Both the position numbers and the translations under genes were made by a program. A model generated the notes under the pieces. It searched no databases. It was not told the origin of the DNA and saw nothing but the letters and a program-made list of their open reading frames with translations. From an uncultured Alphaproteobacteria bacterium (GTDB taxonomy: Bacteria; Pseudomonadota; Alphaproteobacteria; Methylaequorales; Methylaequoraceae): 64,000 nt of DNA. Positions within the stretch are counted from its first letter, which is position 1; each line of letters starts with the position of its first letter. Location: NCBI GenBank assembly GCA_964484795.1, contig CAZAFN010000002.1, forward strand, positions 8,352 through 72,351. Direction: 5' to 3'. Positions 42,910 to 64,000 of the stretch are shown piece after piece.

Positions 42910-45048
42910 TTACAATCTAGAGACATTATCTACAAAATCAGAAGTCCTTAAAGAGACAATCACTTTCCTTAAATGGTTAAGATCTTTAACATCTATTTCT
43001 AAATTTATTTTAAAGAAATCGCTATTTCGATCAGTTATTTTTAAATTCCTAATGTTACTCATTGATCTCCCCACTATCGATGACAAAACTCCTAAAGCCC
43101 CTATTTTGTTTTTTATGGTTACATTGATCTTGGCAACAAATGAAGATTTTTTTGGCACAAATCTCTCCCAAGTAACATTGATTATTTTGGATTTATTAAT
43201 CTCAATCTTTTTTAATTCCTCGCATGCATCAAGATGAACAATCAAACCTTTACCTTCCAAAATATAAGCCACAACTGAGTCACCTAATATAGGGTTGCAA
43301 CAATTTGCATAATGAATGCTCATCCCTGGAGTTAATCCTTTTAATAATAATGGAGAATTTGATTCTTTTCTTTTTTCCTTCACTTCATTTAATAAAACAA
43401 TTTTGTCATTTTGTTTTAATAGTTTTTGACCTGGAAACATTGAATATATAATCTTTGACGCAGAGATGCTTCCATCACCAATTTTCTTGAAAAGATCATT
43501 AATGTCTTTCAATTTAAACTTTTCCAACACACTCTTTATATTTCTCTCTGAATATCTTATCTTCTCATTTTTAAATTGATTAATTAAAATCTCTTTTCCT
43601 AATTTTCTAAAATCATCATCTTCTTTATTATGAAGAAATCTTTTTATGCATACTCTAGCTTTACCAGTTATTGACAAATCTAGCCACTCAGGGCAAATTA
43701 CATTTTCTTTTCCACAGATTATCTCAACCTGATCACCATTCTTCAGTTTGGTATATAAAGGCTTGACAGAATTATTTATTTTTACGCCATTGCAACTCGA
43801 ACCAATGTCTGTATGAACAGAGAAAGCAAAATCTAATGGCATAGCTCCCTTAGGCAATGATATTAAATCACCTTTTGGAGTGAATACAAAAACTTGGTCT
43901 GAATACATCTGTAACTTCGTATATTCAAGAAATTCTTCAGGTTCTCTAGATTGATCAAGAATATCTAAAATCTGTCTTATCCATTTATACTGTTTTCCCT
44001 CTTTTTGATTTATCTTGTCTTTGTAAAGCCAGTGTGCTGCAACCCCAAATTCTGCCAGATCATTCATTGCAAAAGATCTAATTTGTATCTCAATTCTTTG
44101 ATTAACTGGGCCAATTAGTGTTGTATGAATTGATTGATAACCATTGGGTTTAGGAGTTGAAATATAGTCTTTGAATCTGCCTGGAACATAGGAATATTTT
44201 CTGTGAAGAAGACCTAAAACCTTATAACATTCTTCAACATCATCAACCAAAATTGTAAAAGCCATAATATCTGATAACTGGGAAAAATTTACGGACTTTA
44301 CATTCATTTTTTTCCAGATTGAAAATGGTTTCTTTTCTCTTCCAAAAATCTTACCTTTAATCTTATTTTCAAGGAGTAAAACTCTAATTCTCTTTATTGT
44401 TTTTTCCAAAACATCTTCATCTTGCTGTCTCAGCATATTTAATCTCTGAATTATGGACTCTCTAATTTCTGGTTCTATTACCTTGAAACTTAGATCATCA
44501 AGTTCAGTTCTTATTTCTTGCATACCTAACCTTTCGGCTAAAGGTGCATAGATTTCTAAAGTCTCATAGGATATTCTATTTCTTTTTTCATTGTCTTTAA
44601 TGAAATCTATAGTTCTCATATTGTGCAATCTATCTGCAAGTTTAACCAATAAAACTCTAATGTCTTTGGAGGTGGCTAATAATAATTTCCTAAAATTTTC
44701 TGCCTGACTGAATTTATCTGATCGACCTTCAAGTTTTGACAATTTTGTAACTCCATCCACCAAGTAAGAAATTTCATTGCCAAAATTCTCTTTTATGTCT
44801 TTTAAAGTGCATTTTGTATCCTCCACGACATCATGCAGCAAAGCAGTAATTATAGTCATTGAATCAAACTTATGATCAGCAAGGATTCCTGCAACCTCTA
44901 GAGGATGCAAAAAAAATGGATCTCCAGAAGCTCTTTTTTGACTCCCATGAGCCTTCATTGAAAAAACGTAAGCTTTATTTAGAAGCTGCTCTTCAACACA
45001 GGAATCATAAGATTTTACTTTCTCAATTAATTCTACTTGTCTTAACAC
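42910..45048 (-). CDS. rsh: bifunctional (p)ppGpp synthetase/hydrolase (RelA/SpoT homolog)
   Basis: HD domain (HDVVEDT), synthetase domain, TGS and ACT regions; 712 aa. Confidence 0.9.
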   Translation of the reverse strand: MLRQVELIEKVKSYDSCVEEQLLNKAYVFSMKAHGSQKRASGDPFFLHPLEVAGILADHKFDSMTIITALLHDVVEDTKCTLKDIKENFGNEISYLVDGVTKLSKLEGRSDKFSQAENFRKLLLATSKDIRVLLVKLADRLHNMRTIDFIKDNEKRNRISYETLEIYAPLAERLGMQEIRTELDDLSFKVIEPEIRESIIQRLNMLRQQDEDVLEKTIKRIRVLLLENKIKGKIFGREKKPFSIWKKMNVKSVNFSQLSDIMAFTILVDDVEECYKVLGLLHRKYSYVPGRFKDYISTPKPNGYQSIHTTLIGPVNQRIEIQIRSFAMNDLAEFGVAAHWLYKDKINQKEGKQYKWIRQILDILDQSREPEEFLEYTKLQMYSDQVFVFTPKGDLISLPKGAMPLDFAFSVHTDIGSSCNGVKINNSVKPLYTKLKNGDQVEIICGKENVICPEWLDLSITGKARVCIKRFLHNKEDDDFRKLGKEILINQFKNEKIRYSERNIKSVLEKFKLKDINDLFKKIGDGSISASKIIYSMFPGQKLLKQNDKIVLLNEVKEKRKESNSPLLLKGLTPGMSIHYANCCNPILGDSVVAYILEGKGLIVHLDACEELKKIEINKSKIINVTWERFVPKKSSFVAKINVTIKNKIGALGVLSSIVGRSMSNIRNLKITDRNSDFFKINLEIDVKDLNHLRKVIVSLRTSDFVDNVSRL

Positions 45049-45106
45049 AAGAAAATTTTAAGACAAACTGAATCAATTTTAAATATGATTTTGTTTTTTT
45101 TTTTTT

Positions 45107-45622
45107 TTAGCTGATTTTTGAATCGGGTTTTTCATCCACTGAAGATTCTAAATTCCCAGTTTCTGTTGACTCATTCACACCTTCTTCTTGAGAATTAAAT
45201 TCCTCAGAATCATCGTCAGGTGAATTAGAGTCTTTCTTCTGGTCAATTAGCTTTTGAATTTCTGTCTGAGTTAGATAAATTTTCTTTCTCTTTTTTTCCG
45301 ATGCATTTTCTTTTTCAAAATTGTCAAAAGAAACTTGTGATGCATTTTCATTCATTGGCATAGCCTGATCATCATCAATATCTGTGTCCTCGACAGGTTG
45401 ATATTTTTGAGAAGTTTTAACTACAGAATCCCATATATCAACTAAATCTACTTTCTTCTCTGCTATTTCTCTTAAGGCAACTACTGTATTTTTATCATTA
45501 TCAATCGACACATTAGAATCACTGCCTGAAGTTAACTCTCGGGCTCTTCTGCAAGCATAGATCACCAGTTGAAATCTATTAGGAATTGATGTGACGCAAT
45601 CTTCAGTAGTAACTCTAGCCAT
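45107..45622 (-). CDS. rpoZ: RNA polymerase omega subunit with a long acidic C-terminal extension
   Basis: [10 protein letters not shown]…[15 protein letters not shown] omega core, then about 90 aa of Asp/Glu/Ser-rich tail. Confidence 0.8.
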
Positions 45623-45653
45623 TATATTAATTTATAAAGAATTAATTATTTTT

Positions 45654-46178
45654 TTAGTCATTTATATAAAAAATCTTTTGTTTTGCAAGAGATTTCAACA
45701 AACTTTTTGCTTTTTTTTTTATTACTGGGTGTACCCATTCTGGATCCAAATCACAAATTGGTTGCATAACAAATCTCCTAAGATGCATTCTTGGATGAGG
45801 TAGAATTAGGTCATTATCATTTAAAATCGTATCATTGTAGGACAACAAATCTAAATCAATTATCCTAGGCTCATTTTTAAATTTTCTTATTCTCCCAAAC
45901 TTAATCTCAAGATGCAGCATCTTGCTAAGAATTTCTAAAGGTTTTAGATCTGTTTTAATACATATAACACAATTTACGTACCAAGGTTGATCAGACTTTG
46001 GCATTGGTTCTGTTTCATAAAATTTAGAAACACTAGAAACAAGAAAATATTTTTCTAAAAATTTTATAACCTCTATACAGTTATTATATGGCGAACCATA
46101 TAAGTCAGAATTCAAGTTGGATCCAATAGCTACTAAAATCATGTTTTTTTTGCAAGTCTTTCTTTTTCTCTTTTCCAA
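45654..46178 (-). CDS. folK: 2-amino-4-hydroxy-6-hydroxymethyldihydropteridine pyrophosphokinase
   Basis: HPPK pattern (ILVAIGSNL…; GRIR.F.N.PRIIDLDLL). Confidence 0.8.
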   Translation of the reverse strand: MEKRKRKTCKKNMILVAIGSNLNSDLYGSPYNNCIEVIKFLEKYFLVSSVSKFYETEPMPKSDQPWYVNCVICIKTDLKPLEILSKMLHLEIKFGRIRKFKNEPRIIDLDLLSYNDTILNDNDLILPHPRMHLRRFVMQPICDLDPEWVHPVIKKKAKSLLKSLAKQKIFYIND

Positions 46179-46603
46179 TCTTGTTGTTTCTTATATTCTC
46201 TTAAATCAGATTTTTTTCTTCCTTTTGAAACACCTAATTCAATTTTCGCAAAACCTTGACCATTAAAATGAATATTTATTGGAATCAAGGTAAAGCCGTT
46301 ATTTTTTGCCTTCAAAGAAATTTTTTTTATTTCTTTTTTTTTTAAAAGTAATTTTTTAGGTCTAGTATTATCTATGTCTTGTGGATTATTTTTGTAATTT
46401 TTCAAATCTATATAAAGATTGAAAATCCAAATCTCACCATCTTTTTCTCTTGCATATGCATTATCTAATGCAACCCCACCCTCTCTTATGGACTTTATCT
46501 CATGCCCATTTAAAACAATTCCAGCTTCAACCTTTTCAACAATCTCAAAATTATATCTAGCCTTTCTGTTTTCAATAATTTTAGTTCTTGTTTTTTTCAC
46601 CAA
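46139..46603 (-). CDS. smpB: SsrA-binding protein
   Basis: SmpB pattern (NRKARYNFEI…GHEIKSIR…), basic C-terminal tail. Confidence 0.9.
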   Translation of the reverse strand: MVKKTRTKIIENRKARYNFEIVEKVEAGIVLNGHEIKSIREGGVALDNAYAREKDGEIWIFNLYIDLKNYKNNPQDIDNTRPKKLLLKKKEIKKISLKAKNNGFTLIPINIHFNGQGFAKIELGVSKGRKKSDLREYKKQQDWKREKERLAKKT

Positions 46604-46604
46604 A

Positions 46605-47489
46605 CTATTTACAAAGTTTTAATTCTTCTAAAACTTTTTCTATCTTTTTTGCAGTTTCTTTAGATACAGAAACCATAGGAAGTCTCATTATATTTTTACA
46701 CCTCTTCAATTTACTTAGCGCATATTTTACAGGTGAAGGACTGGTTTCAATAAAAAGCACTTTGTTTAGGGGGAAAATCATATGATTTAAATTCATGGCT
46801 TCATCAATATTTCTATTTTGCCAAAACTTGAAAATATTGGAACAAATCCTAGGAATGACATTAGCCGTCACTGAAATACAACCAATTCCACCACTAATTA
46901 AAAAAGATAGAAACGTAGAGTCTTCTCCAGACAACTGAAAAAAATTCTTTCCACATTGTTCATAAACTTCTAATGGAGTATTAAGATCACCTGTAGCATC
47001 TTTAACTCCAACAATGTTATTGATTCTAGACAACCTTTTAATTGTATTAGAATTAATTTCAACGACCGATCTTCCAGGAATATTATACAAATAAATAGGT
47101 AAATTATTGGAACATTCAGCAATCTTCTCAAAATGTTTATACAGACCCTCTTGGGTTGGTTTGTTATAATATGGAGAAACTAATAGTGAAGCATTTGCTC
47201 CCACTTTTTTTGCATGTTCAACCAATTCGATTGATTCTTTTGTAGAATTTGATCCACATCCAGCCATAACAGGAACTCTAGAGTTTGCCCTTTTGATAAT
47301 AAATTCAGTTACTTTTTTGTGCTCATCATGATCTAATGTTGGTGATTCACCAGTAGTACCACAAGATACCAATCCATGGGAACCTTCAGCAATCAAAAAG
47401 TCTATATGATTACCTAAACAGTCGAAATCAATCTGAAAGTTTTTTTCAAAAGGCGTTATTACCGCCGGTATAGAACCTTTAAAGATCAT
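46605..47489 (-). CDS. dapA: 4-hydroxy-tetrahydrodipicolinate synthase
   Basis: DapA pattern (GSIPAVITPF…, CGTTGESPTL, Schiff-base Lys context). Confidence 0.9.
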   Translation of the reverse strand: MIFKGSIPAVITPFEKNFQIDFDCLGNHIDFLIAEGSHGLVSCGTTGESPTLDHDEHKKVTEFIIKRANSRVPVMAGCGSNSTKESIELVEHAKKVGANASLLVSPYYNKPTQEGLYKHFEKIAECSNNLPIYLYNIPGRSVVEINSNTIKRLSRINNIVGVKDATGDLNTPLEVYEQCGKNFFQLSGEDSTFLSFLISGGIGCISVTANVIPRICSNIFKFWQNRNIDEAMNLNHMIFPLNKVLFIETSPSPVKYALSKLKRCKNIMRLPMVSVSKETAKKIEKVLEELKLCK

Positions 47490-51311: not shown

Positions 51312-52007
51312 CTACAACAAGTTTCCATCTAGAAAACTTCTTATAATTTTATTTTTTGAAGTTAAAAAATCTTGTTTCAATGATTGTTCAATAATTCTTC
51401 CATTCTGCAGAAAAATCACCTCATCGGCTAATCGTTTAGCTTGAAACAAATCATGAGTTACCATTATGATTTTCTTTTTCCTTTTTTCTTGAAACAAAAA
51501 AAATTCAATTTTTTTTACAAATTCATTATCTAGGTTTGCACAGGGTTCATCTAAAATCAACAAATCTGGTTCTACGCATAAAGATCTAATGAAAGATAAA
51601 AACTGTTTGTTTCCAGCCGATAATTTCCTAGCAGATAATTTTTTTTTTTCAAAAAAATCAAAATGTTGTAGTAAAAAATTTATTCGATTATCCACAAAAT
51701 CTTGATCAAATCCAGAAATCTTCATTGGATACGCTAAATTGTCATATACACTCCTTCTAAGAAAAACAACATTCTGTGAAACATAGCCAACTTTTATTTT
51801 TTGATTGTTTAATATTACATTTCCACTGGTTGGTTTTACCAAGCCTTTAAGAATTTTTGTTAATAAAGTTTTGCCTGAACCATTAGGGCCTAATATGACA
51901 GTAATGCCTGAATCAGAAAATTGTAGTGACAAATTATTGAAAAATTTTCTTTGATTAATTGAAAAACAGATTCTTTCCAATGAAATATTAAAACCATAGT
52001 CAATCAT
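51312..52007 (-). CDS. ABC transporter ATP-binding protein (molybdate/tungstate-type, no fused TOBE)
   Basis: Walker A GPNGSGKT, signature LSAGNKQ, Walker B LLILDEP. Confidence 0.75.
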   Translation of the reverse strand: MIDYGFNISLERICFSINQRKFFNNLSLQFSDSGITVILGPNGSGKTLLTKILKGLVKPTSGNVILNNQKIKVGYVSQNVVFLRRSVYDNLAYPMKISGFDQDFVDNRINFLLQHFDFFEKKKLSARKLSAGNKQFLSFIRSLCVEPDLLILDEPCANLDNEFVKKIEFFLFQEKRKKKIIMVTHDLFQAKRLADEVIFLQNGRIIEQSLKQDFLTSKNKIIRSFLDGNLL

Positions 52008-52695
52008 AAGAAAACTTCTTAGCCATTAATTTTACAATCATTACAAGTGAATTTAATATAATTGCTATGAAGATAAGAATTATCCCTAGTGACATTGCTA
52101 AAGTTAAGTTTCCCCTTGAAGTTTCCAAAGCAATTGTTGTTGTCATCACTCGTGTAAAATGAATTATGTTGCCTCCAACTATTATTATGGCACCAACCTC
52201 TGATAAAGCTCTTCCCAAACCAGTAAGTATGCATGTAAACATTAGAAATCTAGCATCCCACAAAATGGTTTTAATTTTATCTAACAGACTAGCATTTACT
52301 ACAAGCATTAATTCCTCATATTCATTAGATATTTGCTCTAATGTCTCAGTAGTTACTGATATTATAATAGGCAAAATTATGATTATCTGTGCCAAAACCA
52401 TTATTTTGGGTGTATATAAAATCTCAAAGAAACCTAAAGGTCCACTATTTGAAAACAAAATATACAGCACCAATCCTACGAACACTGGTGGAAGGGCCAT
52501 CATAGAATTGAAAAAGACCACTAGAAATTTTTTTCCGAAAAAGTTAATCGTTGCTAAGAATGCACTAACAGGTAAACCAATTGTCGTAGAAATCAACAGT
52601 GCAAGAAACGAGACCTTTAGAGACAAAAAAATTATTTCGTATAAATCGGGATCAAATGAATATATTAGTTCAAATGATTTAAAAAAAACTTCCAC
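52000..52695 (-). CDS. ABC transporter permease, ModB-like
   Basis: MALPPVFVGLVLYIL resembles the ModB LPLVLPPTVVGF segment; EAA-like loop; 5-6 TM segments. Confidence 0.65.
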   Translation of the reverse strand: MEVFFKSFELIYSFDPDLYEIIFLSLKVSFLALLISTTIGLPVSAFLATINFFGKKFLVVFFNSMMALPPVFVGLVLYILFSNSGPLGFFEILYTPKIMVLAQIIIILPIIISVTTETLEQISNEYEELMLVVNASLLDKIKTILWDARFLMFTCILTGLGRALSEVGAIIIVGGNIIHFTRVMTTTIALETSRGNLTLAMSLGIILIFIAIILNSLVMIVKLMAKKFSYD

Positions 52696-52727
52696 AAGTA
52701 TGAATTATTTAGTTTTGCTTAACAAAA

Positions 52728-52955
52728 TCAATGTTTAGCTAGTATAACAGTCGCTGCAGGAAAAATACACGTAACGTGATTACCTTTTGACAATTCCATT
52801 TTCTTACAAATATCCACTGGTATTGCAGCATGAATGAAACTGCCTGTTACAACTCCATCAGCATCTGTTTGTTCAACAGCAATTTGTGAATAACTAGATC
52901 CGTGAATTATAGATGTTACTATGCCTCTTATTTGATTTTTTGCACTTATTTGCAT
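52728..52955 (-). CDS. Mop/TOBE-domain molybdopterin-binding protein
   Basis: MQISAKNQIRGIVTSI… Mop pattern; 75 aa. Confidence 0.7.
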   Translation of the reverse strand: MQISAKNQIRGIVTSIIHGSSYSQIAVEQTDADGVVTGSFIHAAIPVDICKKMELSKGNHVTCIFPAATVILAKH

Positions 52956-52987
52956 TTTTTTTACCTTTCTTGATATAAACTAATAAT

Positions 52988-53836
52988 CTATTTTTTTTTC
53001 CAAAAATAAACAAGCCCTACTGCAGAAATATTATGCCACAAACTAAAAATAGCGGAAGGTAGGGCAGAAATTTTGCTAAAATGAATTAACGCTAATGCCA
53101 TTCCAAAACCAGAATTTTGCATTCCAACTTCAATTGAAATGGTTTTTTTTACATCTACTGGATATCCAAACATAGATGAGATGAAATACCCTAAAAACAA
53201 ACCTAATGCATTATGAAAGATGACACCAAAAATTACATTTGATGAAATGCTTATAAAGTTTTCAAAATTTAAAGAAAAAATAATTGCAATTATGAAAGCA
53301 ATTATTATTTCTGAAATTTTGGGGAAACAGTTAAGTAATTCCTTTTTGTCCTTTTGCATAAAGCTTTTAATTAGAAGACCTAAAACGACGGGAAAAAAAA
53401 CAATCAAAAAAGTTGACTTCATTAATTTGAAGAAATCAACTTCAATGTTTTCATTAGCCAAAACCAAAATTAAAAAAGGAGTTATTATTACTGCCAGGAG
53501 AGTCGATACCAAGGTGCACATTACTGAAAGTGCTACATTTCCATTGCAAAGATAGGTTATAACATTGGAAGCTGTGCCACCCGGACATGATCCAAGTATT
53601 ATAAAACCAAGTGCCAGTTCAAAATCAATGTTTAATAACTTTATAAGAAAAAATGCAATTAATGGCATTATTGTAAACTGAAGAACAACTGTAATGACAA
53701 TCCAAATTGGTTGAGATAGGACTCTTTTAATATCTTTGAAATCTATCGTCATTCCCATTCCAAACATTACAAGGCCAAGAAAAAGCGGAATGTAATCCTT
53801 GAAAAAAGAGAAAAAACTAGAAAATGTAAAACTCAA
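52988..53836 (-). CDS. bile acid:sodium symporter (BASS) family transporter
   Basis: GSCPGGTASNV signature; about 9 TM segments. Confidence 0.7.
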   Translation of the reverse strand: MSFTFSSFFSFFKDYIPLFLGLVMFGMGMTIDFKDIKRVLSQPIWIVITVVLQFTIMPLIAFFLIKLLNIDFELALGFIILGSCPGGTASNVITYLCNGNVALSVMCTLVSTLLAVIITPFLILVLANENIEVDFFKLMKSTFLIVFFPVVLGLLIKSFMQKDKKELLNCFPKISEIIIAFIIAIIFSLNFENFISISSNVIFGVIFHNALGLFLGYFISSMFGYPVDVKKTISIEVGMQNSGFGMALALIHFSKISALPSAIFSLWHNISAVGLVYFWKKK

Positions 53837-53900
53837 TAATAAAAAAAGGGATATATAAAAAAGAAATCCAAATCGAAAAATCCAGTTCGTATTAAGAAAA

Positions 53901-54338
53901 TTACTGATCGTAATCTCTCAACATTTTTTTTATTTCGATACCATGTATTTCCTCAGTTTTAATCATCTCTCTAGCATATTCTTCAATATAAACACTTTCA
54001 TTTTCAGAATAAGATAAAAGCTCTTTATATAAAGATATTGCTTTTTCTTCATGAGAAAGACTTTCTACTAAAAGGTCCTTAACCGAATGTTTGTTTGTCT
54101 CTTCAATCTCAGGAATCGCTTGCGAAGGATGACCACCCAATCCTGTCAACAATTCACCAGCTTGTTGTGCATGCTCAAGTGATTCAGATGCCTGCGCTTT
54201 AAAAAATTTGTCCAAAAACAATCTATTGGGCCCCGTAACCATCAAAGCAAAATGAGTGTATTTCACTACACCCGCCAATTCATATTTGAGTATATCATTC
54301 AGTATTGATACAGCCTTATCTACATTTAAACCCGTCAT
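53901..54338 (-). CDS. ferritin-like / bacterioferritin-family protein (putative)
   Basis: Four-helix-bundle pattern with Glu/His ligand spacing (…ELAGVVKY…ESLEHAQQ…EEKAISLY…EEIHGIE). Confidence 0.45.
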   Translation of the reverse strand: MTGLNVDKAVSILNDILKYELAGVVKYTHFALMVTGPNRLFLDKFFKAQASESLEHAQQAGELLTGLGGHPSQAIPEIEETNKHSVKDLLVESLSHEEKAISLYKELLSYSENESVYIEEYAREMIKTEEIHGIEIKKMLRDYDQ

Positions 54339-54437
54339 TATTCCTCCACAAAAAAATTAATTACATCATTATCCAAAAAACCAGAATCCAATGCTACAAA
54401 AAAAAATTAAAAAACTTCATTTCAAGAGTTCTTCCAC

Positions 54438-54453
54438 TGGCACAGTGTTTGCA
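54438..54453 (+). promoter_or_regulatory. sigma-54 (RpoN) -24/-12 promoter upstream of flgG
   Basis: TGGCACagtgtTTGCA is an exact match to TGGCAC-N5-TTGCW. The -12 element ends 38 nt before the flgG ATG, which has an AGAGGA RBS. Confidence 0.6.
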
Positions 54454-54491
54454 GAAAAAACATTAAACCTAGCTAAGAAAGAGGATTAAAA

Positions 54492-55280
54492 ATGAGTACT
54501 AATGCAATGCACGTTGCTAAAACCGGATTAAATGCGCAACAAGTTCGAATGCAAATAATTTCAAACAATCTTGCAAACGTTAACACAAATGGATTTAAGA
54601 GAGATCGAGCAAATTTTGAATCATTACTTTATCAAATAATAAGAAGTAGTGGTGCCCAAACTTCAGTAGACACCGAATTAACTTCAGGTTTTTCTGTAGG
54701 TACAGGTGTGAATGTAGTTAACTCAAATAAACTTCATTCTCAAGGAAGTATAGTTTCAACCGATAATTCTCTAGACTTAGCAATTGACGGTGGAGGTTTT
54801 TTCCAAGTTTTACTTCCTGATGGTCAGATTGTGTATACAAGAAATGGAGCTTTTGCCAGAAATAACGAAGGAATATTGACAACTAACAGTGGTTTTATAA
54901 TTCAACCAGAAACTGCAATACCTGCAGAAGCAACTAAAATTAATGTTTCAGCAGACGGCATAGTTTCCGTTCAAGTTCCTGAACAGGTTGAAGCACAGGA
55001 AATTGGACAGCTTCAATTGGCAGACTTTCAAAATAGGACCGGTCTTCAACCAATTGGAGAAAACTTTTATGTAGAAACCACGGCAAGTGGGGCTCCAGTA
55101 TTAGAAAACCCTTTTGCAGCCGGGTTTGGTAAAATAGTCCAAGGTGCTTTAGAGAGTTCTAACGTAAATGTTGTTCAAGAATTAGTAGATATGATTGAAA
55201 CTCAAAGAGCTTACGAGGTTAATTCCAAGGCAATAACTTCCGTGGATGAAATGTTAAGATTTGTTAGCAACAACTTGTAG
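54492..55280 (+). CDS. flgG: flagellar basal-body distal rod protein FlgG
   Basis: MHVAKTGLNAQQVRMQIISNNLANVNTNGFKRDRANFESLLYQ is near-consensus; C-terminal rod motif (IETQRAYEVNSKAI). Confidence 0.9.
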   Translation: MSTNAMHVAKTGLNAQQVRMQIISNNLANVNTNGFKRDRANFESLLYQIIRSSGAQTSVDTELTSGFSVGTGVNVVNSNKLHSQGSIVSTDNSLDLAIDGGGFFQVLLPDGQIVYTRNGAFARNNEGILTTNSGFIIQPETAIPAEATKINVSADGIVSVQVPEQVEAQEIGQLQLADFQNRTGLQPIGENFYVETTASGAPVLENPFAAGFGKIVQGALESSNVNVVQELVDMIETQRAYEVNSKAITSVDEMLRFVSNNL

Positions 55281-55288
55281 GGTTTAAA

Positions 55289-55981
55289 ATGAGATTTTTA
55301 CTTTTATCAATGATCCTACTTTTGAGTAGTTGTTCACACTATATGGAGAATAAAATTGGCGAAGAATTTAAAAGTATTCAACCTGATTTTACCAATATAG
55401 AAACGACTCAAACATCTACAGAAGGTGCTGTTTACGAAGGTAGCGGTGGGCTGTTTGCATCAGACAGAAGAGCAAACAATATTGGTGACATAATCACCAT
55501 TACTTTAGAAGAATCTTTGACTGCAGCAAACTCTGGCTCTGAAACAACAACAAAATCAGATGCTTATACATTTGATCTTCCGGAAGCACTTTTTGGCCCA
55601 TCTTCCTTAATTGGAAAGTTGTTTTTTCCTGGAGGTGTCAAAGAAGACAACTTGCGAGCTGGAACTACTCAAGCATTTACTGGAAGTGGAACCGCAGCTC
55701 AAGCCAACAGTTTGGCTGGCACGATATCCGTCACGGTTGTCAGAGTATATCCTAATGGAAATTTGGAAGTTAAAGGGGAAAGAAAACTATCTTATAATAG
55801 TGGGACTGAGTACATTAGATTGGCAGGCGTAATTAGACCTGAAGACATTTCTTCCAGCAATACTGTATCATCAACAAAAGTAGCAGACGCACAAATATCT
55901 TACACTGGAGTTGGGGATATGAATGACAGTGTAACCAAAGGATGGTTGAGCAGATATTTTGCTTATGTATCACCTTTTTAG
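55289..55981 (+). CDS. flgH: flagellar L-ring lipoprotein FlgH
   Basis: Lipobox LLSSCS; FlgH core (…[12 protein letters not shown]…[19 protein letters not shown]…). Confidence 0.8.
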
Positions 55982-55988
55982 GTCAACT

Positions 55989-57116
55989 ATGAAAAAAAAA
56001 CACATCTATTTCTTATTTTTACTTATTTTTTGTTTTACAAGTTCTGTTGCTTATTCTGACAGAATTAAAGACATGGCTTCTCTTGCAGGAGTTAGGTCCA
56101 ATCAGCTTGTTGGCTACGGCTTGGTCATAGGCTTATCTAAGACTGGTGACGGAAGTGTTAATCTTACCAAACAAAGTATTGCTGCAATGGTTTCTCAGTT
56201 TGGCGTCATTGCCAGCACTGCAGACATAGATGCAACCAATTCAGCAAATGTTATGGTTACTGCAAACTTACCACCGTTTGCAAAACCTGGACAAACCATA
56301 GACATAACTGTTTCAACCATCGGCAAGGCTAAGTCCTTAAAGGGTGGAACATTGTTGATGACTGCTTTAAAAGGTGCAGATGGAGATGTTTATGCAATTG
56401 CTCAAGGAAATCTAGTTGTAGGTGGCCTAGGAGTTGAAGGTGCTGATGGCTCAAGTACAATTCAAGGCACTCCTACTGTCGGAAGAATTCCAGGAGGAGC
56501 AACGGTTGAAAAAATAGTTGAAAACACTTTCTTAGAAAAAGATAATGTTGTCTTAAACCTTCACCAATCAGATTTTTCACAAGCAGATAAGATAGCTGAA
56601 ACCATAAATGACACATTTGGACCAGAAGTTGCCATACCATTGGATTCAACATCCATAAAGGTGAGAACTCCAGCAGACCCATCTCAAAAAGTTTCATTTA
56701 TTGGATTGTTAGAAAACATAAATTTTGAACCAGTTAGTCCAAAGGCTAAAGTTGTCATTAACTCAAGAACTGGCACCGTAGTAATAGGAGGTGACGTAAG
56801 AATTTCACCTGCTGCAGTTGCTCATGGAAGTTTGTCAGTAAAAATTCAAGAGGATACAAAACTTCTATCAGAAGGAACAGGAACCGTTGTTGGAACATCT
56901 GCAACGGTAGCAGGAACAACTGCCACAACTACGGCAGATACTCAAATTTCAGTTGACGAACAACCAGCAAGAGCATTTGTTTTTGACCCTGGAATTGAAT
57001 TACAAACACTTGTGGATGCTTTAAATGAAACTGGAACCACTGCAACAGATATGGTTGCCATTCTTGAAGCGCTAAGAGAGGCTGGCTCCTTAAGGGCAGA
57101 GTTAATCATTATCTAA
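55989..57116 (+). CDS. flgI: flagellar P-ring protein FlgI
   Basis: Signal peptide then [26 protein letters not shown], the FlgI mature N-terminus. Start chosen at MKKKHIYF…; the track ORF starts 30 nt earlier. Confidence 0.9.
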
Positions 57117-57127
57117 AAGGTTGAAAG

Positions 57128-57439
57128 ATGAAAAACAATTCAATTAGCAATATGAAAATGAATCTAGAAGATCATATTTCAACCATCAACACAAAAAAGA
57201 TTGGTCAAAAAAATTCGCTAGAAGAGGTCGCTCAAGAGTTTGAATCCTTATTTGTTTTTCAAATGCTTAAAAGCGCAAGAAAAGCAAAGCTAGCTGAAGG
57301 CATATTAACCAACGAAGCTTTTGATACTTATCAATCAATCCTAGATCAAGAATACGCCAAGACGATTGCAAAAAATCAAAGCTTTGGAATAGCAGAAGCA
57401 CTAATAAGACAGTTTGGCAAATATGAGGATGTTAAGTAG
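57128..57439 (+). CDS. flagellar rod-binding protein (FlgJ N-terminal-domain-like)
   Basis: Rod-binding domain pattern (AQEFESLFVFQMLKSARKA…); the stop overlaps the flgK GTG start (TAGTG). Confidence 0.6.
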   Translation: MKNNSISNMKMNLEDHISTINTKKIGQKNSLEEVAQEFESLFVFQMLKSARKAKLAEGILTNEAFDTYQSILDQEYAKTIAKNQSFGIAEALIRQFGKYEDVK

Positions 57440-60400
57440 TGCCAAGTTTATTTGACATAGGAAAAAGTGGTCTTCAATCTTACAGGCAATCTTTAGCTGT
57501 AACTGGTCAGAACATTGCAAACATAAATACTGATGGATACAAAAAAAGAGAAGCGGCTCTTGAAGAAGTATCTGGTGGTGGTGGTGGTGTAACGGAAATT
57601 TCTGATCAAACGGGGTTAGGAGTTAGAGTTGGTGAAATTAGACGTGCATTTGATCAATTCTTGGTTGATAAGGCTAGACAGACATCTTCCATATATAAAA
57701 AGGCCGACACATATCTTGATGAAGTTAAAGATTTAGAAAACCTTTTATTACCTAGTGACTCAAACTTAAGCACTTCAATCGGAGATTTTTTTAATTCATT
57801 ACAAGAAATTGCAGCTGCTCCAGATGATCAAGCTCCAAGAATAATCGCCGTTGAAAAAGGGAAGGATCTTGCTGGTCAATTCAATCTATATTCAGATAGA
57901 ATTGAAAGTTTGAAAAAAAAAATAGTTGATAAATCAAAAAACTCGGTAACCTCAATTAATCTTCTGTCAACACAAATTAACAGTATAAATGGAAAATTGT
58001 TGGCATCAAGTTCAGGTAGTGGTGCAAATGCGCTCCTTGATCAAAGGGACATTCTAATAGATCAACTTTCAGAAGTTTCTCAGATAACTGTTTCTTACGG
58101 AAGCAAAGGTGAAGCTGAGATTAGACTTGGTAACACAGGTTCAGGACCAATAATTGTTGAAGCAGATTCATCATCTTCAAAAGGAAACAATTCTACTACT
58201 AATGTTGATGTTATTATTCAAGGTTCAAGATTGCAAACTGTTGTGGGGATAACTAAAACTGCCACCAATCAAGTGCAAGCTGGAATTCTAGCTGGTTTAG
58301 TCGATTCATATGCTTTGGCAAATGACACAATGAATGAGGTTGACGCCCTGGCAGTGATGATCTCCAAAAAATTCAATGAAATCAATATGTCAGGAATTAA
58401 TCTAGATGGAAAAAATGGAAAACAAATGTTCTCTGTTTCAAGTCTTGAGGCCGTAGAAAACCCAACTAATAGATCAAGTGTAGGTGTGGCCCTTTTTGTA
58501 ACTGATCCAGAAAAAATCCAAGAAAGTGCGTATAACGTTATCTTTCATGAAAAAACCGGTGAATGGAATTTAACTTCAGAAAAAATCAAAACTGCAATAA
58601 CAGGAACTGAAACAATTGAAGCTCCAGGATTCAGAATTTCATTTTTTGGTCAACCACTCGATGGAGATGAATTTAACATCACTCCTACTAGTGCATCCAA
58701 AGGAATGAATTTTCTTCTAGAGAGACCTCAAGATTTTGCTGCCGCCTCTACTTCCATGATTAGCTCAAGTTCAACCAACTTAGGGTCAGCAAAACTAGAT
58801 GAAATTTCACCAATTAAAGAAAAAGATAAAACTACATTGTTGAATTTGAATTCTGTTTTTTCAAATGGTCTTAGTCCAGTCACAGCAGGAGAGTTTACGT
58901 CTGATGGAGGAGCAGCCATCATTCCAACAGGAACTTCATTTGTAAACTTAAGTTCATACAAATCTCAACCACAGATAAAATTTGGCTTATCAGCATCTGA
59001 CATCCCAAAACTTACAAGTTTTACGGTCACATTGTCTGATTCAAGTACTGTGACAGTAGATTTAACCGGAGTAACTTCAATCCAGGAAGCTGCAGATGTA
59101 CTTAACAGGAGTAGAGACGTTCAAGGAAATTCTCACAATTTTAGATCAAAAGGGCTTTTTGCTTCAGGAGGTGGATCAACTTTGACTGTAGCAAGCAATA
59201 ACCTTACTTTTTCTTCTGGATCTTTAACCGCTGGAACTGCTATTAATGGTGTTGCAAACAATCCATCAATAACAGCAGCAAGCCAAGTTCAAATTTTCAC
59301 TAGAGAAGGAAGACATTTAGCTGGCACGGTTCTTACAACATCTGAAATAGCAAAATATTTGTCAGAGGAAAATGGTTTCTCAAAACATGCTGAATATAGA
59401 GCTGACTATCTCAATGGAACCGGAAGCGAAAATTATAGAGACATTGACATCTCAAGATCAACAATATCCGGAAACCACACTATAAGTTACGGTGCCAATG
59501 GTACGGCAGCGAGTGCACAAAGAGCCGCATCAACCGTTCCTTCAAGCCATGTTTCTTCAGCTTTTACATTGACCTTAAATTCAACAACCACGGGAAAGTC
59601 TGAAAACATTAGCGTCCCTGTAGAATCTTCATCTGGTTATGTTGCAGGATTGATAAATGCCAATACAAAAAGTCTAGGTTTAGAAGCATCAGCAAACACA
59701 AGAGTTAAAATCCCTGCACCAGCTTTTGATGGAACAATATCTTTTACACTTAAAAGCAAACAAGGGGTTGATAATAGTGCAGCAATTAGTGCTTCGATAT
59801 TAACGAATGATTTGACAAACCTTGCGACTACAATAAATAACTATTCCGGAAGAACAGGTGTTATTTCTCACTTGTCCAGTGACAAAAAACATATAATTCT
59901 TGAAAATAGTAATGGAGACGACATTCAAATAAGTTCTTTCTCAAGTTCCAACACGGCAAACAATCTAACAATCAACACTACAAGTTTGGGTTCCAGTGCC
60001 TCAGCAACCATATCAAAAAATGGACATGGACTTGAAACTGGTGACAAGGTTATTTACACCGCTGGTGGAACTCAATTAGGCAACCTTACAAATGGTGGAA
60101 CATATTATGTAATAAAGGTAAATGACAACAGTTTCAAGGTTGCGTCATCAAGCAGCAATGCTTATGGAGGGACGGCAATTACCGTTGGTGGTAGTGGTGG
60201 AAACGCAAATGACAAATTTACAATACCAATGAGTCTGGAAATTCTTAAGAATGACTTCAATGGGTTTTCCAGTGCTCAATCAATTGATTTAGATGGCAAC
60301 AGCTATAAAGCTGGAAGATTTAGTGGAGAACTGCATATTGAATCATCTTCAGCATTTACTACATCTAATGATGGTGGATCCACAACAGTCTCAAGTTCAC

Positions 60401-62847
60401 AAAATTCTCTAAAAGATGGATTTATGAGTGTAACCTCATCTTCTACGGGAGAAACAAAAACAGTTAGTCCACTTGTTTTGGATGCTGACTTCTCATCTGG
60501 ACATCCAGACGGAGTTAATTCTGCAAGTTCCGTATTAAGTTATGGGCTAACATTAGCTGCAAGCGGAACGGGAAGTGCTTTTACTACAACCGTAGATGTT
60601 TCAAAAAACGATAAATTAAGTACGGCAGAGGTATCCAAGAAAATTGCCGAAGGATTGAGAGCTAATAGCCCTTCAACTGAAATGACAGGCACTTCGGTTG
60701 CATCAATTCCTGCAGATGGTTCAAGTTTTAAAGTAGATCATGATGGCTTAACCTACACCTTAACAATGGAAAATGGTGAAGTAATTGTTTCAGGTGGAGA
60801 AAAGGATCTTTTAACGGCTTATTTTGATGACCCAGACGCAATCACAGTTAACACCACATCACTCAATGGAGCCACAACGATAACTTCTAATGAACACGAT
60901 CTCGAAACTGGAGATGCCATTGTTTACAATGCTGCCGAAAAAGTTAATGTTGATACCACTAATTTTACTTCAGTAACCACCATAACTGCAAAAAACCATG
61001 GTTTTGCTACTCAGGACCCCATAATTTATAAAGCTGGGGGATCTATGCCAATTTCAGGTTTAACGGATGGAACCACTTATTACGCAATTAGAGTTAATGA
61101 TGATAGTTTTAAATTAGCAACCTCTTCAGTAAACGCTGGTTCTGGTACGGCTATAACAATAGCAGGAGGAATAGGTGGGAGTGTTTCTGACAAATTTTCC
61201 AGTCCACGAGCAGGCTTGTTAGACGGAGAAACTTATTATGTCGTAAAAACTGATGATCACAATTTTAGGTTGGCTCAAACATATACTCTTGCAACAAATG
61301 CTAGTCCTTCCGTAATTACAATTGGAACTGGAAACGTTGGTGGTAACAGTGCAGACACATTTGACCCTGGAAAAAGATTATACATTTCCGCTGGAAAAAC
61401 CATATCTGGATCTCAGTTTTCATTTCCAACGGACAGCTCAAACGACACCAATTCATTAGACTTTGGAATGGATAAAACCAACGTAGAAACATCTATCACA
61501 GGTAGTGAAATCACTACTCCAACATATACAAAAGGCGGCTCTCCAACGGTCACACAGACTCATTTTCACTTTACATTTGGGCGCGAACAGCCATATTGTG
61601 TAGCTTATACGGACAATACAAAAACTGTAAACACAACGTCAGCAGTTTCTTCAAGTGAAATAACCTCTAGTTCTCACGGTTTCAAAACGGGAGACAAGAT
61701 TGAATATAATAAGGCAGGAACCGTATTGAATGGTCTTACAGATAACACCTCATATTTTGCCGTTGTCACTGGTCCAAACACCTTCAAACTTGCAAGCACT
61801 TGGGCAAATGCAACAGCAGAAACTCCGACCACAATGTCAATTGGAGGAAGTGGTGGAAATGCAGGTGATACATTTACAAGCATAGTTGCAGGCATTTATA
61901 ATGATGATTTTCCAGGTGGAACGGCATTAACAAATCTTGGAATTTCTATGGAGTTGACTCAATCAAGTGACACTAAAGCACAATTATCATTTGTTAAGGA
62001 AGCCGACAAAAATCAGATTGTCATAAGCAATGCTAAATATGATTATTTGGCTACAACTAGTGATAGAGAAGCTGAAAATTTTGGCTTTAAAACAAATCAA
62101 ATGAACGTAAATGTAATAAATGATGATATAAAAATTCAGTCATTTACGTCAGATTCTCGAGGGGCAAAGGCAGTTGATCTAGAAATTCCTTCTAATAGTA
62201 TTAAATCTTTAGTTGGAAACAATTTGTCAATCAAAAATTTACCCCCTGAGGACTTGATAATGATCATGACCGGCAACGGAACAAGAAAAATTGGTTCAAG
62301 TTATGGGGAAGTTCTTCCACCCCCTCCTCCATCTGAATATAAGGTAGTAGTTGACTCAACTAACAACAAAAAAATTGAGATTTTTGATGCATCAACCAAT
62401 CATTCAATTGCGTCAAGATTGATTCCTGACAATGGAATAATCTCTGCAGTGGACAAATCTCTAAGATTTACTGGAGAAACATCCACAAAAGACATTTTCA
62501 ACATTACAAATAATACTGAGGGAATTGGAGACAACAGAAACATTTTAAAAATGATTGACTTGCAAGAGTCAGATGTGAATGGTTTAAATTCTGGAAGTTT
62601 CCAGGATATTTTTAATCAAACTGTTGCAGAAATTGGTTCGACGGTGAGAAGTGGGCAATTAACCCTTCAAGATGCCGAATCAACAAAAAATGAAGCAAAG
62701 GCAGCTGAAGATGAAATGGCTGGTGTATCATTAGATGAAGAAGCATCGTCTCTAATTCAATTTCAACAAGCTTTCTCAGCAAATGCTAGAATCATTCAAA
62801 CTGCTCGAGAGCTATTCCAGTCATTGATGATGGTTGTTTCCAAATAG
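57439..62847 (+). CDS. flgK: giant flagellar hook-associated protein 1 (FlgK), 1802 aa
   Basis: FlgK N-terminal domain (LFDIGKSGLQSYRQSLAVTGQNIANINTDGYKKREA) and C-terminal helices (VSLDEEASSLIQFQQAFSANARIIQTARELFQSL). They flank a central insert of about 1400 aa that is Ser/Thr/Gly/Asn-rich and contains internal repeats. Confidence 0.8.
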   Translation: MPSLFDIGKSGLQSYRQSLAVTGQNIANINTDGYKKREAALEEVSGGGGGVTEISDQTGLGVRVGEIRRAFDQFLVDKARQTSSIYKKADTYLDEVKDLENLLLPSDSNLSTSIGDFFNSLQEIAAAPDDQAPRIIAVEKGKDLAGQFNLYSDRIESLKKKIVDKSKNSVTSINLLSTQINSINGKLLASSSGSGANALLDQRDILIDQLSEVSQITVSYGSKGEAEIRLGNTGSGPIIVEADSSSSKGNNSTTNVDVIIQGSRLQTVVGITKTATNQVQAGILAGLVDSYALANDTMNEVDALAVMISKKFNEINMSGINLDGKNGKQMFSVSSLEAVENPTNRSSVGVALFVTDPEKIQESAYNVIFHEKTGEWNLTSEKIKTAITGTETIEAPGFRISFFGQPLDGDEFNITPTSASKGMNFLLERPQDFAAASTSMISSSSTNLGSAKLDEISPIKEKDKTTLLNLNSVFSNGLSPVTAGEFTSDGGAAIIPTGTSFVNLSSYKSQPQIKFGLSASDIPKLTSFTVTLSDSSTVTVDLTGVTSIQEAADVLNRSRDVQGNSHNFRSKGLFASGGGSTLTVASNNLTFSSGSLTAGTAINGVANNPSITAASQVQIFTREGRHLAGTVLTTSEIAKYLSEENGFSKHAEYRADYLNGTGSENYRDIDISRSTISGNHTISYGANGTAASAQRAASTVPSSHVSSAFTLTLNSTTTGKSENISVPVESSSGYVAGLINANTKSLGLEASANTRVKIPAPAFDGTISFTLKSKQGVDNSAAISASILTNDLTNLATTINNYSGRTGVISHLSSDKKHIILENSNGDDIQISSFSSSNTANNLTINTTSLGSSASATISKNGHGLETGDKVIYTAGGTQLGNLTNGGTYYVIKVNDNSFKVASSSSNAYGGTAITVGGSGGNANDKFTIPMSLEILKNDFNGFSSAQSIDLDGNSYKAGRFSGELHIESSSAFTTSNDGGSTTVSSSQNSLKDGFMSVTSSSTGETKTVSPLVLDADFSSGHPDGVNSASSVLSYGLTLAASGTGSAFTTTVDVSKNDKLSTAEVSKKIAEGLRANSPSTEMTGTSVASIPADGSSFKVDHDGLTYTLTMENGEVIVSGGEKDLLTAYFDDPDAITVNTTSLNGATTITSNEHDLETGDAIVYNAAEKVNVDTTNFTSVTTITAKNHGFATQDPIIYKAGGSMPISGLTDGTTYYAIRVNDDSFKLATSSVNAGSGTAITIAGGIGGSVSDKFSSPRAGLLDGETYYVVKTDDHNFRLAQTYTLATNASPSVITIGTGNVGGNSADTFDPGKRLYISAGKTISGSQFSFPTDSSNDTNSLDFGMDKTNVETSITGSEITTPTYTKGGSPTVTQTHFHFTFGREQPYCVAYTDNTKTVNTTSAVSSSEITSSSHGFKTGDKIEYNKAGTVLNGLTDNTSYFAVVTGPNTFKLASTWANATAETPTTMSIGGSGGNAGDTFTSIVAGIYNDDFPGGTALTNLGISMELTQSSDTKAQLSFVKEADKNQIVISNAKYDYLATTSDREAENFGFKTNQMNVNVINDDIKIQSFTSDSRGAKAVDLEIPSNSIKSLVGNNLSIKNLPPEDLIMIMTGNGTRKIGSSYGEVLPPPPPSEYKVVVDSTNNKKIEIFDASTNHSIASRLIPDNGIISAVDKSLRFTGETSTKDIFNITNNTEGIGDNRNILKMIDLQESDVNGLNSGSFQDIFNQTVAEIGSTVRSGQLTLQDAESTKNEAKAAEDEMAGVSLDEEASSLIQFQQAFSANARIIQTARELFQSLMMVVSK
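60022..61880 (+). repeat. Degenerate ~65-aa intragenic protein repeats in the FlgK central insert (at least 3.5 copies)
   Basis: Copies at nt 60022-60228, 60995-61206, 61214-61367 (partial), 61672-61880, plus a partial copy at about 60892. They share [GS]HG[LF]xTGDxIxY…GLTDGTTYY.I.V.D.SFKLA.S…GTAIT..GG.GGN..D.F. Identity is at the amino-acid level only (about 40%). Confidence 0.5.
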
Positions 62848-62855
62848 GAGAATGC

Positions 62856-63785
62856 ATGAAAAAAACATTTAATCAGGAAATTAATTTAAAAATAACTTCT
62901 AAAAATCCTAACAAGAACGTTCTCTTCAATAAATCAGATGAATTCATCAATGAAATTATAAATGCTATAAACAAAAAACATCCAGATAGTTTTGAATTTG
63001 AAACCACCCAAAAGGTTGGGATAGATTTCTTCACCAAAAAGATGGAAAAGAATGAAAACTTTTCCTTTGTAAAATATGGTGATGGAGAATTACTTTGTAT
63101 GATCGGTCGTAAAGGAAAAAATAGTATAGATGACCACCCATATTCAGAAAAATTAGGAAAACTTCTTGAAGAATCATTTGTTAATTTATTCAGATTTCAC
63201 GATGATGTTTACTTAGCGGATTGGACTGACAATTTAACAAATACCAGAGATAGTTATATTTCCATCAATGGCTTAAACCCAAAATTTGCCGAATACGAAT
63301 GTTTTTTGACTCTCGAAGAAAACATAAAAAACAATAAACTGCTAAATTTTTATAAACTTCTTAAAAGGTCCAAAAGAAAAAAAATTTTTATTGGCCCAAA
63401 AAAACTTGCAAAAGTTCAAGAAATGCTAAATGTTGACAAATTCATAGACGTACCGATTGTTGATGCTTTCTCGGAATACGATAGAATCAAATCTCAACTA
63501 TTTGACTATGGAATAAATGACGATAACGTTTACATTTTATGTTGTTCCATGATGTCTTGCGTGATTTGCAGTGATTTAAAAGAAATGAATTCAAAAATCA
63601 CTTTACTTGATGTTGGGAGTGGTTTTGATCCTATATTTAGTCAAAAAACAAGACCAAAACAACCCACCAGCGCAAATTGTTTTAACTATTTCAGAGAAGT
63701 ACTCCCTGATGGATACGTCTTCAGTAAAACTAGCGATGCAGTGAACAGTATAAACAATAGGAAAATGCATGAAAAAAACATTTAA
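62856..63785 (+). CDS. GT-D (DUF1792)-like putative glycosyltransferase, copy 1; 3' end reads into the duplicated segment
   Basis: …FVKYGDGELLCMIG… resembles the N-terminal [RK]xGDGE motif of GT-D-fold glycosyltransferases. Begins 8 nt after the flgK stop. The last ~10 codons (…NNRKMHEKNI) are encoded by the repeated upstream/start region of copy 2. Confidence 0.35.
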   Translation: MKKTFNQEINLKITSKNPNKNVLFNKSDEFINEIINAINKKHPDSFEFETTQKVGIDFFTKKMEKNENFSFVKYGDGELLCMIGRKGKNSIDDHPYSEKLGKLLEESFVNLFRFHDDVYLADWTDNLTNTRDSYISINGLNPKFAEYECFLTLEENIKNNKLLNFYKLLKRSKRKKIFIGPKKLAKVQEMLNVDKFIDVPIVDAFSEYDRIKSQLFDYGINDDNVYILCCSMMSCVICSDLKEMNSKITLLDVGSGFDPIFSQKTRPKQPTSANCFNYFREVLPDGYVFSKTSDAVNSINNRKMHEKNI

Positions 63786-64000
63786 TCACGAAATTAATTT
63801 AAAAATAACTTCTAAAAATCCTAACAAGAACGTTCTCTTCAATAAATCAGATGAATTCATCAATGAAATTATAAATGCTATAAACAAAAAACATCCAGAT
63901 AGTTTTGAATTTGAAACCACCCAAAAGGTTGGGATAGATTTCTTCACCAAAAAGATGGAAAAGAATGAAAACTTTTCCTTTGTAAAATATGGTGATGGAG
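63769..64000 (+). CDS. GT-D (DUF1792)-like putative glycosyltransferase, copy 2 (3' end outside the window)
   Basis: All 232 nt visible are identical to 62856-63087 apart from one substitution (Q7H). Confidence 0.35.
   Translation, partial: MKKTFNHEINLKITSKNPNKNVLFNKSDEFINEIINAINKKHPDSFEFETTQKVGIDFFTKKMEKNENFSFVKYGDG

Follow-up and report, generated by a model that had tools for sequence, protein, structure and literature searches.

A giant FlgK of an uncultured alphaproteobacterium and its two-layered insertion at the hook-filament junction

FlgK, the hook-associated protein 1 of the bacterial flagellum, is usually seen as an adaptor of 450-700 residues. In Salmonella it assembles as 11 subunits between the hook and FlgL (PMC12221982), and in the FlgK ring its domain D2 is outermost (PMC5691160). 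The FlgKs of Burkholderia pseudomallei (673 residues, PDB 4ut1) and Caulobacter crescentus (702 residues) possess an extra domain, D3 (PMC5691160). The closest known case to the protein described here is FlgK1 of Rhodobacter (Cereibacter) sphaeroides, a protein of 1363 residues with an 860-residue insert that contains Flagellin_IN motifs and internal repeats and accompanies a hook-associated protein (HAP) region that is visibly bulky (PMC7277832). Deletions of 100 residues within that insert impair swimming, and two of them leave normal-looking flagella unable to propel the cell (PMC7277832). Here we describe an FlgK of 1802 residues encoded in a stretch of 64,000 nucleotides (the window; contig CAZAFN010000002.1 of assembly GCA_964484795.1, positions 8,352 to 72,351 of the forward strand) from an uncultured alphaproteobacterium of the Methylaequoraceae.

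In both the window FlgK and R. sphaeroides FlgK1, the conserved FlgK ends are separated by a single very large central insertion (>800 residues) with internal repeats. Flagellin_IN-type motifs occur in the insert of FlgK1 and, at sub-threshold scores, appear in that of the window protein. However, the window protein is about 440 residues longer, comes from a low-GC, small-genome, apparently marine alphaproteobacterium, and contains four modules resembling the FCCH domain of E1 enzymes (one of them nested) together with two lineage-specific domains, none of which was found in the Rhodobacter-type proteins sampled. Giant flagellins, known from Oceanospirillales where they are built from DE and DX regions (PMC6248924), resemble the window FlgK in joining conserved axial-protein ends to a huge exposed insert derived from internal duplication. 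They are a different axial protein, however, present in thousands of copies along the filament as against 11 FlgK subunits at the junction.

The FlgK core and its insertion

The flgK reading frame comprises 1802 codons with zero internal stops. Its product passes the NCBIfam equivalog model for FlgK (TIGR02492, 267.2 bits against a cut-off of 170.75, E = 3.5e-79), and three Pfam hallmarks of FlgK are confined to its two ends: Flg_bb_rod (PF00460, residues 6-35), FlgK_D1 (PF22638, residues 97-331, E = 1e-44) and Flg_bbr_C (PF06429, residues 1759-1796, E = 1.6e-10). We consider it virtually certain that this is a genuine FlgK (hook-associated protein 1), in agreement with the initial annotation of the locus, which had proposed intact N- and C-terminal FlgK domains separated by a very large surface-facing insert.

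Alignment with the solved FlgK of Salmonella (553 residues) paired residues 1-441 of the window protein with residues 1-442, and residues 1695-1798 with residues 449-551. Alignment with B. pseudomallei FlgK (4ut1) paired residues 55-457 with 58-468, and residues 1657-1797 with 531-669. Judged from these alignments, a complete ordinary FlgK is present and all extra sequence forms a single insertion of about 1250 residues (residues 442-1694). An earlier estimate of about 1400 residues was somewhat too high, because all canonical parts fall in residues 1-441 and 1695-1802. The insertion follows the outward-facing D2, before the chain goes back to D1, and the FlgKs of B. pseudomallei and C. crescentus receive their D3 domain at this same position. 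Whereas those proteins gain about 60-150 residues in one domain, the window FlgK gains about 1250 residues in ten or more. The middle region is rich in Ser (14.2 %), Thr (12.3 %), Gly (9.6 %) and Asn (7.2 %), as had been noticed before, and also in Ala (8.0 %).

A search with only the central 1257 residues matched 121 proteins. Every match long enough to reach a terminus has FlgK end domains, and about 80 of the 121 are colinear orthologues of 1685-1805 residues and 55-78 % identity. They share the N-terminus MPSLFDIGKSGL, which is common to all orthologues, and are already deposited in public databases under the FlgK name. At the genome level, a complete flgK orthologue (1703-1794 residues) was found in ten species-level genomes, with an eleventh locus cut by a contig end. 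The orthologue-bearing assemblies include single-cell genomes and long contigs, one orthologue lying on a contig of 1.48 Mb. A second contig of nearly the same sequence (L001, from JGI) is 99.93 % identical to the window contig over 16.3 kb and extends further downstream.

Two layers within the insertion

Roughly ten to twelve small domains, most of them beta, follow one another along the insertion and fall into two layers: an older flagellin-like scaffold (residues 442-841, 948-1133 and 1590-1694) and a younger, lineage-specific layer (residues 852-932 and 1142-1589). A structural model of residues 384-1140 (pLDDT 78, pTM 0.70) matched the D2/D3 domains of Pseudomonas aeruginosa FliC (8sug, E = 3e-7; 8erm, probability 1.0, TM 0.68). 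It also matched the flagellins of Helicobacter pylori and Campylobacter jejuni and, more weakly, FliD D2-D3. Flagellin_IN (PF07196) gave matches at about residues 527-560 and 710-754 that stayed below its cut-off (E 0.0015-0.02; 15.5-19.1 bits against 22.7); the same family passes in a relative (P0093, 38.6 bits) and appears in precomputed annotation on many orthologues. About half of the insert is thus predicted to be flagellin-outer-domain-like, a commonly used flagellar outer-domain type.

The scaffold reaches well beyond the window's own clade. A FlgK of 1387 residues from a Rhodobacter sp. metagenome-assembled genome (MAG; P0111) is colinear with the window protein over residues 1-841 (27 % identity, E = 1e-59), 960-1133 and 1590-1797, and insert-level matches also extend to FlgKs labelled Marivita, Rhodospirillaceae and Paracoccaceae. 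By sequence comparison, the scaffold layer appears to be common to large FlgKs (1100-1830 residues) of many marine Alphaproteobacteria, including the Rhodobacter type. We examined FlgK length by open reading frame (ORF) calling in retrieved genomes with an alphaproteobacterial-type FlgK. In 45 species-level genomes of marine Alphaproteobacteria (L003-L057), among them SAR116/Puniceispirillales and MAGs labelled Rhodobacteraceae, Paracoccaceae and Rhodobiaceae, FlgK measured 1120-1833 residues. The protein collection added FlgKs of about 1990-2030 residues and one, N-terminally incomplete, of 2127 residues. Seeming FlgKs of about 2600 residues, suggested by tblastn spans of 7.8 kb, were ruled out; the ORFs encode 1555-1563 residues and the span had entered the downstream gene. 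Large FlgKs are therefore the rule in these 45 genomes, which include the window's own abundant small-genome lineage, and not an oddity of R. sphaeroides. A literature search retrieved no description of these proteins or of widespread giant FlgKs in marine Alphaproteobacteria.

We next turn to the younger layer (Table 1). The repeats in it were detected by motif searches, segment BLAST and shuffle tests; whole-protein self-BLAST gave nothing useful on them. Modules R1, R2 and R4 are mutually 44-53 % identical over about 80 residues, and the pairwise local alignment scores of the repeats lie 17-28 standard deviations above 500 shuffles. When the two halves flanking R2 were spliced, they aligned end to end with R1 (z = 17.5). 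The sequence thus indicates four complete modules, one of which is split by R2 nested inside it. The initial annotation had counted at least 3.5 copies of a module of about 65 residues; repetition is borne out at scores far beyond chance, while the count and the length become four full copies of about 80 residues. In an AlphaFold2 model of residues 1100-1720 (mean pLDDT 80, mostly >90 through the split-module stretch), the first half gives two strands and the second half gives the remaining strands and a helix, as in R2 and R4. The split module would therefore close into one barrel in three dimensions, and the nested R2 offers a clean example of a domain-in-domain insertion.

A hidden Markov model (HMM) of the module recovered the same pattern of five matches (three full copies and two halves) throughout the full-length members of the close clade; P0017 was the exception, as its weak N-half match was missed. 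R1 is lacking in a subclade of 1685-1703 residues. Tandem Repeats Finder detected no DNA-level tandem repeats in flgK, indicating that the duplications are old. The two other lineage-specific domains, at residues 1319-1401 and 1482-1589, had no family match in the family scans. Scanning with the module HMM found no such barrel in the more distant genome-derived FlgKs; module-bearing FlgKs were confined to the window's own clade and a clade of about 2027 residues. The FlgKs of the P0104 clade carry a different repeat unit of about 100 residues.

The module had been left without a recognisable domain, but relatives of it can be named. Pfam E1_FCCH (PF16190) matched R1 below threshold (14.9 bits against a cut-off of 29.5, E = 0.029) and came closest in the orthologue P0057 (26.4 bits against the same cut-off). 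Foldseek on a structural model placed the FCCH domains of the E1 enzymes UBA1 and UBA6 among the top-ranked matches, with the highest probabilities (0.8-0.95) but modest E-values, and a fold match to a phage endosialidase was also obtained. In fold the module is clearly a small beta-barrel, probably of the E1-FCCH or endosialidase-barrel type; its exact family membership is less clear. Despite the fold match, the module stands outside any E1 enzyme context. In the Pfam scans run here it met only distant or unrelated models (E1_FCCH, End_beta_barrel, FeoA, DnaJ_C), mostly with no individually significant stretch, and it seems to have no dedicated model among them.

Matches to phage families were stronger. 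Each module matched phrog_2885 (E 3e-10 to 1e-9) and phrog_38233 (E 1e-9 to 8e-8), and the whole protein matched them with E = 1.2e-18 and E = 2.2e-13, respectively. The PHROG families matched by the modules are annotated as tail fibre and baseplate wedge subunit. By tblastn the modules also matched, with 40-45 % identity, genes for tail fibres and gp7 in myoviruses that infect Prochlorococcus and Synechococcus, and the phage repeat domain with sequence matches to them is represented by phrog_2885, phrog_38233 and phrog_32294 and by P-HM2, MED4-213 and S-SM2 gp7. Unlike that repeat domain, the window module sits in a cellular flagellar protein within a flagellar operon. With its FlgK ends and its gene in a flagellar operon of the chromosome, the protein is no virion component and has just this domain in common with phages.

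The occurrence of the module outside flagellar proteins, which had been proposed as a check, was then surveyed. A word-indexed search with a three-module alignment returned six short fragments only, and the exhaustive HMM search was the informative one. Among 1.84 billion representative proteins, the profile matched 7341 at E <= 1e-3 and 1484 at E <= 1e-10, with up to 27 module copies per protein and module-bearing proteins of up to about 8000 residues. The module thus occurs widely outside FlgK. Among the best 150 module proteins, nine have flagellin ends, two are FlgKs and 139 are neither; seven of eight sampled from these 139 match phage tail PHROGs. The module-bearing flagellins include P0130 (1133 residues, 10 copies), P0133 (961 residues, 7 copies) and P0131 (1771 residues, 7 copies), which carry 7-10 copies of the same module of about 80 residues as the window FlgK. 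Taken with P0147 and P0271, they measure 961-1771 residues and have 7-11 copies. These module-built giant flagellins differ from the Oceanospirillales type. In a protein of 2987 residues with 27 copies (P0127), a flagellin N-terminus was found by phmmer only. One small beta-barrel is therefore met in three settings: in FlgK, in giant flagellins, and in thousands of other proteins that are giant or resemble phage tail fibres. FlgK modules are 45-55 % similar to the flagellin and phage-like copies, about as similar as they are among themselves; no donor can be named.

To see how the insertion is conserved, we compared it region by region in five orthologues at 56-78 % identity. In four of the five, identity amounted to 59-76 % in the N-terminal core, 61-79 % in scaffold A and 63-76 % in scaffold B; over all orthologues compared, the two scaffold blocks ranged over 56-79 % against 59-76 % for the N-terminal core. 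The insert was almost free of insertions and deletions. Conservation much like that of the core with hardly a gap argues for specific packing, in contrast to a free-running hypervariable region. Residues 1319-1401 and 1482-1589 were clearly below core conservation in every distant orthologue, and module R4 was also less conserved in some of them.

A probable collar at the hook-filament junction

Overall, the explanation that we find probable is a genuine FlgK whose insert forms a bulky, mechanical outer collar at the hook-filament junction. By analogy with Salmonella, the window FlgK would also assemble as 11 subunits between the hook and FlgL, in a ring with D2 outermost. Eleven inserts of about 137 kDa each would add roughly 1.5 MDa outside this ring. 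They may surround the junction in an ordered outer collar, a larger counterpart of the bulky HAP region of R. sphaeroides, and such a collar might stiffen or buffer the junction and thereby help the filament to hold its shape against the load of the motor. Since an 11-mer with D2 outside should direct the inserts outward, an external collar is the part of this proposal that we hold with good confidence. A mainly mechanical role is suggested by R. sphaeroides, in which cells with 100-residue deletions in the insert still assemble flagella yet swim poorly or not at all; we put it forward tentatively as the most likely role, one that may well prove right but that we would not assert. An enlarged junction had been anticipated in the initial annotation and agrees with a scaffold homologous to that of Rhodobacter-type large FlgKs and with the bulky HAP region of R. 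sphaeroides (PMC7277832). The accompanying proposal of a sheath-like structure finds nothing pointing to it.

Several points weigh against this explanation. For the present lineage, the collar and its mechanical role are inferred from sequence and models, and the models cover pieces of a monomer. The likeness of the scaffold to the R. sphaeroides type was seen with the 1387-residue FlgK of the Rhodobacter sp. MAG, a protein similar in size to FlgK1. A gammaproteobacterial origin is attributed to the Fla1 system of R. sphaeroides, so that part of the history of the two inserts may differ. Furthermore, the R. sphaeroides-type proteins sampled are devoid of the modules, so that the contribution of the modules is without experimental precedent.

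Could the collar serve in binding instead? Modules of a phage-fibre-like kind might bind polysaccharide, particles or another cell surface, making the junction double as an adhesin or a sensor, an idea that takes up the moonlighting adhesin-like domain suggested in the initial annotation. The matches to phage tail-fibre and baseplate-wedge families (phrog_2885 and phrog_38233), those to cyanomyovirus tail-fibre and gp7 genes at 40-45 % identity, and the decoration of the exposed region of giant flagellins by the same module are all consistent with such a function. However, there are just 11 copies per flagellum, and their place beside the cell surface, where a rotating filament begins, is a poor one for adhesion. 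In addition, the conserved HGxxTGD, GTxYY, FKLA and GGxGG motifs seem to resemble fold-defining turns and core and not a binding pocket, the repeats in the phage proteins have no demonstrated ligand, and an entire subclade does without R1. We regard a binding collar as unlikely. Quite unlikely, in our estimate, is a related proposal in which the module moves as a cassette for surface decoration, passing between the tail fibres or baseplates of marine phages and the exposed inserts of FlgK and giant flagellins, and gives the collar at the junction a ligand-related role in place of a purely mechanical one. If true, the cassette could bind polysaccharide, or mask or mimic the receptor of flagellum-dependent phages.

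Alternatively, the insert might be tolerated ballast, a passively accumulated and antigenically variable spacer without a specific role. Flagellar axial proteins generally vary in their outer domains, the content of the insert changes from clade to clade (other repeats in P0104, no such modules in SAR116 or Rhodobacter types), and R1 has been gained or lost within the clade. By contrast, the scaffold is about as conserved as the core, the insert stays nearly indel-free down to 56-60 % identity, and every full-length orthologue scanned has retained the nesting. A useless 3.7 kb would hardly persist in streamlined genomes of about 1.5-1.6 Mb (estimated from the largest contigs), and insert deletions in R. 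sphaeroides impair swimming (PMC7277832). For these reasons, ballast also appears to be an improbable account. The presence of a 5.4-kb gene under constraint in a genome of about 1.5 Mb argues that the enlarged junction is important for open-ocean swimming. A giant FlgK of this kind extends a known flagellar theme and overturns no current view of the flagellum.

In a further scenario, the insert would form a glycosylated or sheath-like cuff, its Ser/Thr-rich surface being the substrate of an adjacent GT-D-like enzyme. Ser and Thr make up 26 % of the insert, and in eight related loci flgK and flgL are separated by an ORF with GT-D-like similarity in seven of eight orthologues and an invariant YGDGE of the DxE type. 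All GT-D matches, however, fall below curated cut-offs, and the ORF is missing in four loci (L002, L004, L009 and L010) with an equally large flgK and the same modules. If the ORF were a glycosyltransferase, flagellins would be an equally likely target, and no sheath genes were seen. We judge a cuff of this kind highly improbable. Absence from four loci with a giant flgK means that the ORF cannot explain the insert; of the earlier proposal that a putative glycosyltransferase following flgK suggests a decorated junction, the adjacent ORF with weak GT-D similarity stands and an explanation of the insert by it does not.

Finally, an assembly or annotation artefact, whether two fused genes or a chimeric contig, has unusual length as its only support and is practically negligible, being rejected by the single stop-free frame with FlgK domains only at the ends, by the 99.93 % identical second contig and by colinear orthologues that recur in independent assemblies, in single-cell genomes and on contigs as long as 1.48 Mb, which also settle the question of a fusion raised at the outset.

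The flagellar operon and neighbouring genes

Coordinates of the features are collected in Table 1.

Table 1. Features of the giant flgK locus, with positions in the window and, where applicable, in the FlgK protein
Feature	FlgK residues	Window position	Strand	Remark
flgJ, short form, rod-binding domain only, 103 aa		57128..57439	+	upstream neighbour of flgK
Ribosome-binding site GAGGA		57425..57429	+	9 nt 5' of GTG; read from sequence
flgK		57439..62847	+	1802 aa plus stop codon; GTG start overlapping flgJ stop
Canonical FlgK D0(N), D1a/D1b, D2	1-441	57439..58761	+	aligns with Salmonella FlgK 1-442
Insert scaffold A, flagellin-outer-domain-like beta/alpha domains	442-841	58762..59961	+	colinear with P0111
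Module R1, FCCH-like beta-barrel	852-932	59992..60234	+	absent from 1685-1703-aa subclade
Insert scaffold B, beta domain with helix	948-1133	60280..60837	+	common to P0111, 30 % identity
Split module, N-terminal half, strands 1-2	1142-1169	60862..60945	+	
Module R2, nested within split module	1176-1257	60964..61209	+	
Split module, C-terminal half, strands 3-5 and helix	1258-1318	61210..61392	+	
Lineage-specific linker domain, helix and strands	1319-1401	61393..61641	+	no family match
Module R4	1402-1481	61642..61881	+	
Lineage-specific beta/alpha domain	1482-1589	61882..62205	+	least conserved part, 44-52 % identity in distant orthologues
Return segment kept in all large FlgKs (NLPPEDLI...)	1590-1694	62206..62520	+	from residue 1657 aligns with B. 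pseudomallei FlgK
Canonical FlgK D1(C), D0(C)	1695-1802	62521..62844	+	aligns with Salmonella FlgK 449-551
309-aa ORF, sub-threshold GT-D-like similarity, invariant YGDGE		62856..63785	+	flgK neighbour
Second tandem copy of GT-D-like ORF, start		63769..64000	+	runs off window; ATG at 63769

The operon order in the window is flgG-flgH-flgI-flgJ-flgK. The flgJ stop and the flgK GTG overlap by one base in the sequence TAGTG, and flgK is translationally coupled to flgJ. In L001, flgG-H-I-J-K is followed by an ORF of 305 residues, flgL, three flagellin genes, fliD and fliS, whereas in L002 flgL comes directly after flgK. The flagellins encoded near the giant flgK of L001 (positions 16369-21637) measure 264, 264 and 514 residues, and FlgL measures 427. 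The two of 264 residues are minimal, with D0/D1 only. Unlike giant flagellins, these small flagellins lack the module of about 80 residues, which is absent from all L001 flagellins and the FlgL encoded near flgK. With minimal flagellins and a giant FlgK in one genome, the filament would be thin and the junction that carries it very bulky.

Housekeeping genes (era, rnc, lepB, pdxJ, spoT, rpoZ, folK, smpB and dapA) occupy positions 39313-47489 of the window, GC content is about 29-40 % across positions 52000-64000, and related contigs measure 1.48-1.65 Mb. These observations point to an abundant, streamlined, uncultured marine alphaproteobacterium.

The 309-residue ORF downstream of flgK matched PF22882 (21.9 bits against 27) and NF040628 (21.7 bits against 75), both below cut-off, and the same weak GT-D match recurred in seven of its eight orthologues. 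Its YGDGE, at residues 74-78, is invariant in the eight orthologues and contains a DxE motif, which we take to define the GT-D family. A profile alignment paired its residues 64-120 with residues 22-80 of the DUF1792 domain of GalT1 (4phr) at E = 0.7 only. An ORF of about 306 residues lies between flgK and flgL in the eight related loci (including L005-L008 and L011-L013). 'Putative glycosyltransferase' is thus a fair label for the ORF, though not an established one, and the ORF may represent a subfamily of flagellar glycosyltransferases that is as yet undescribed.

A direct repeat of 245 nt (99 % identity, 913-nt spacing) spans positions 62843-63087 and 63756-64000 of the window. L001 has a single GT-D-like copy followed by flgL and is otherwise 99.93 % identical, indicating that the tandem copy in the window reflects either copy-number variation or a difference in assembly. 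The repeat junction alters the C-terminus of the first copy, which encodes 309 residues as against 305.

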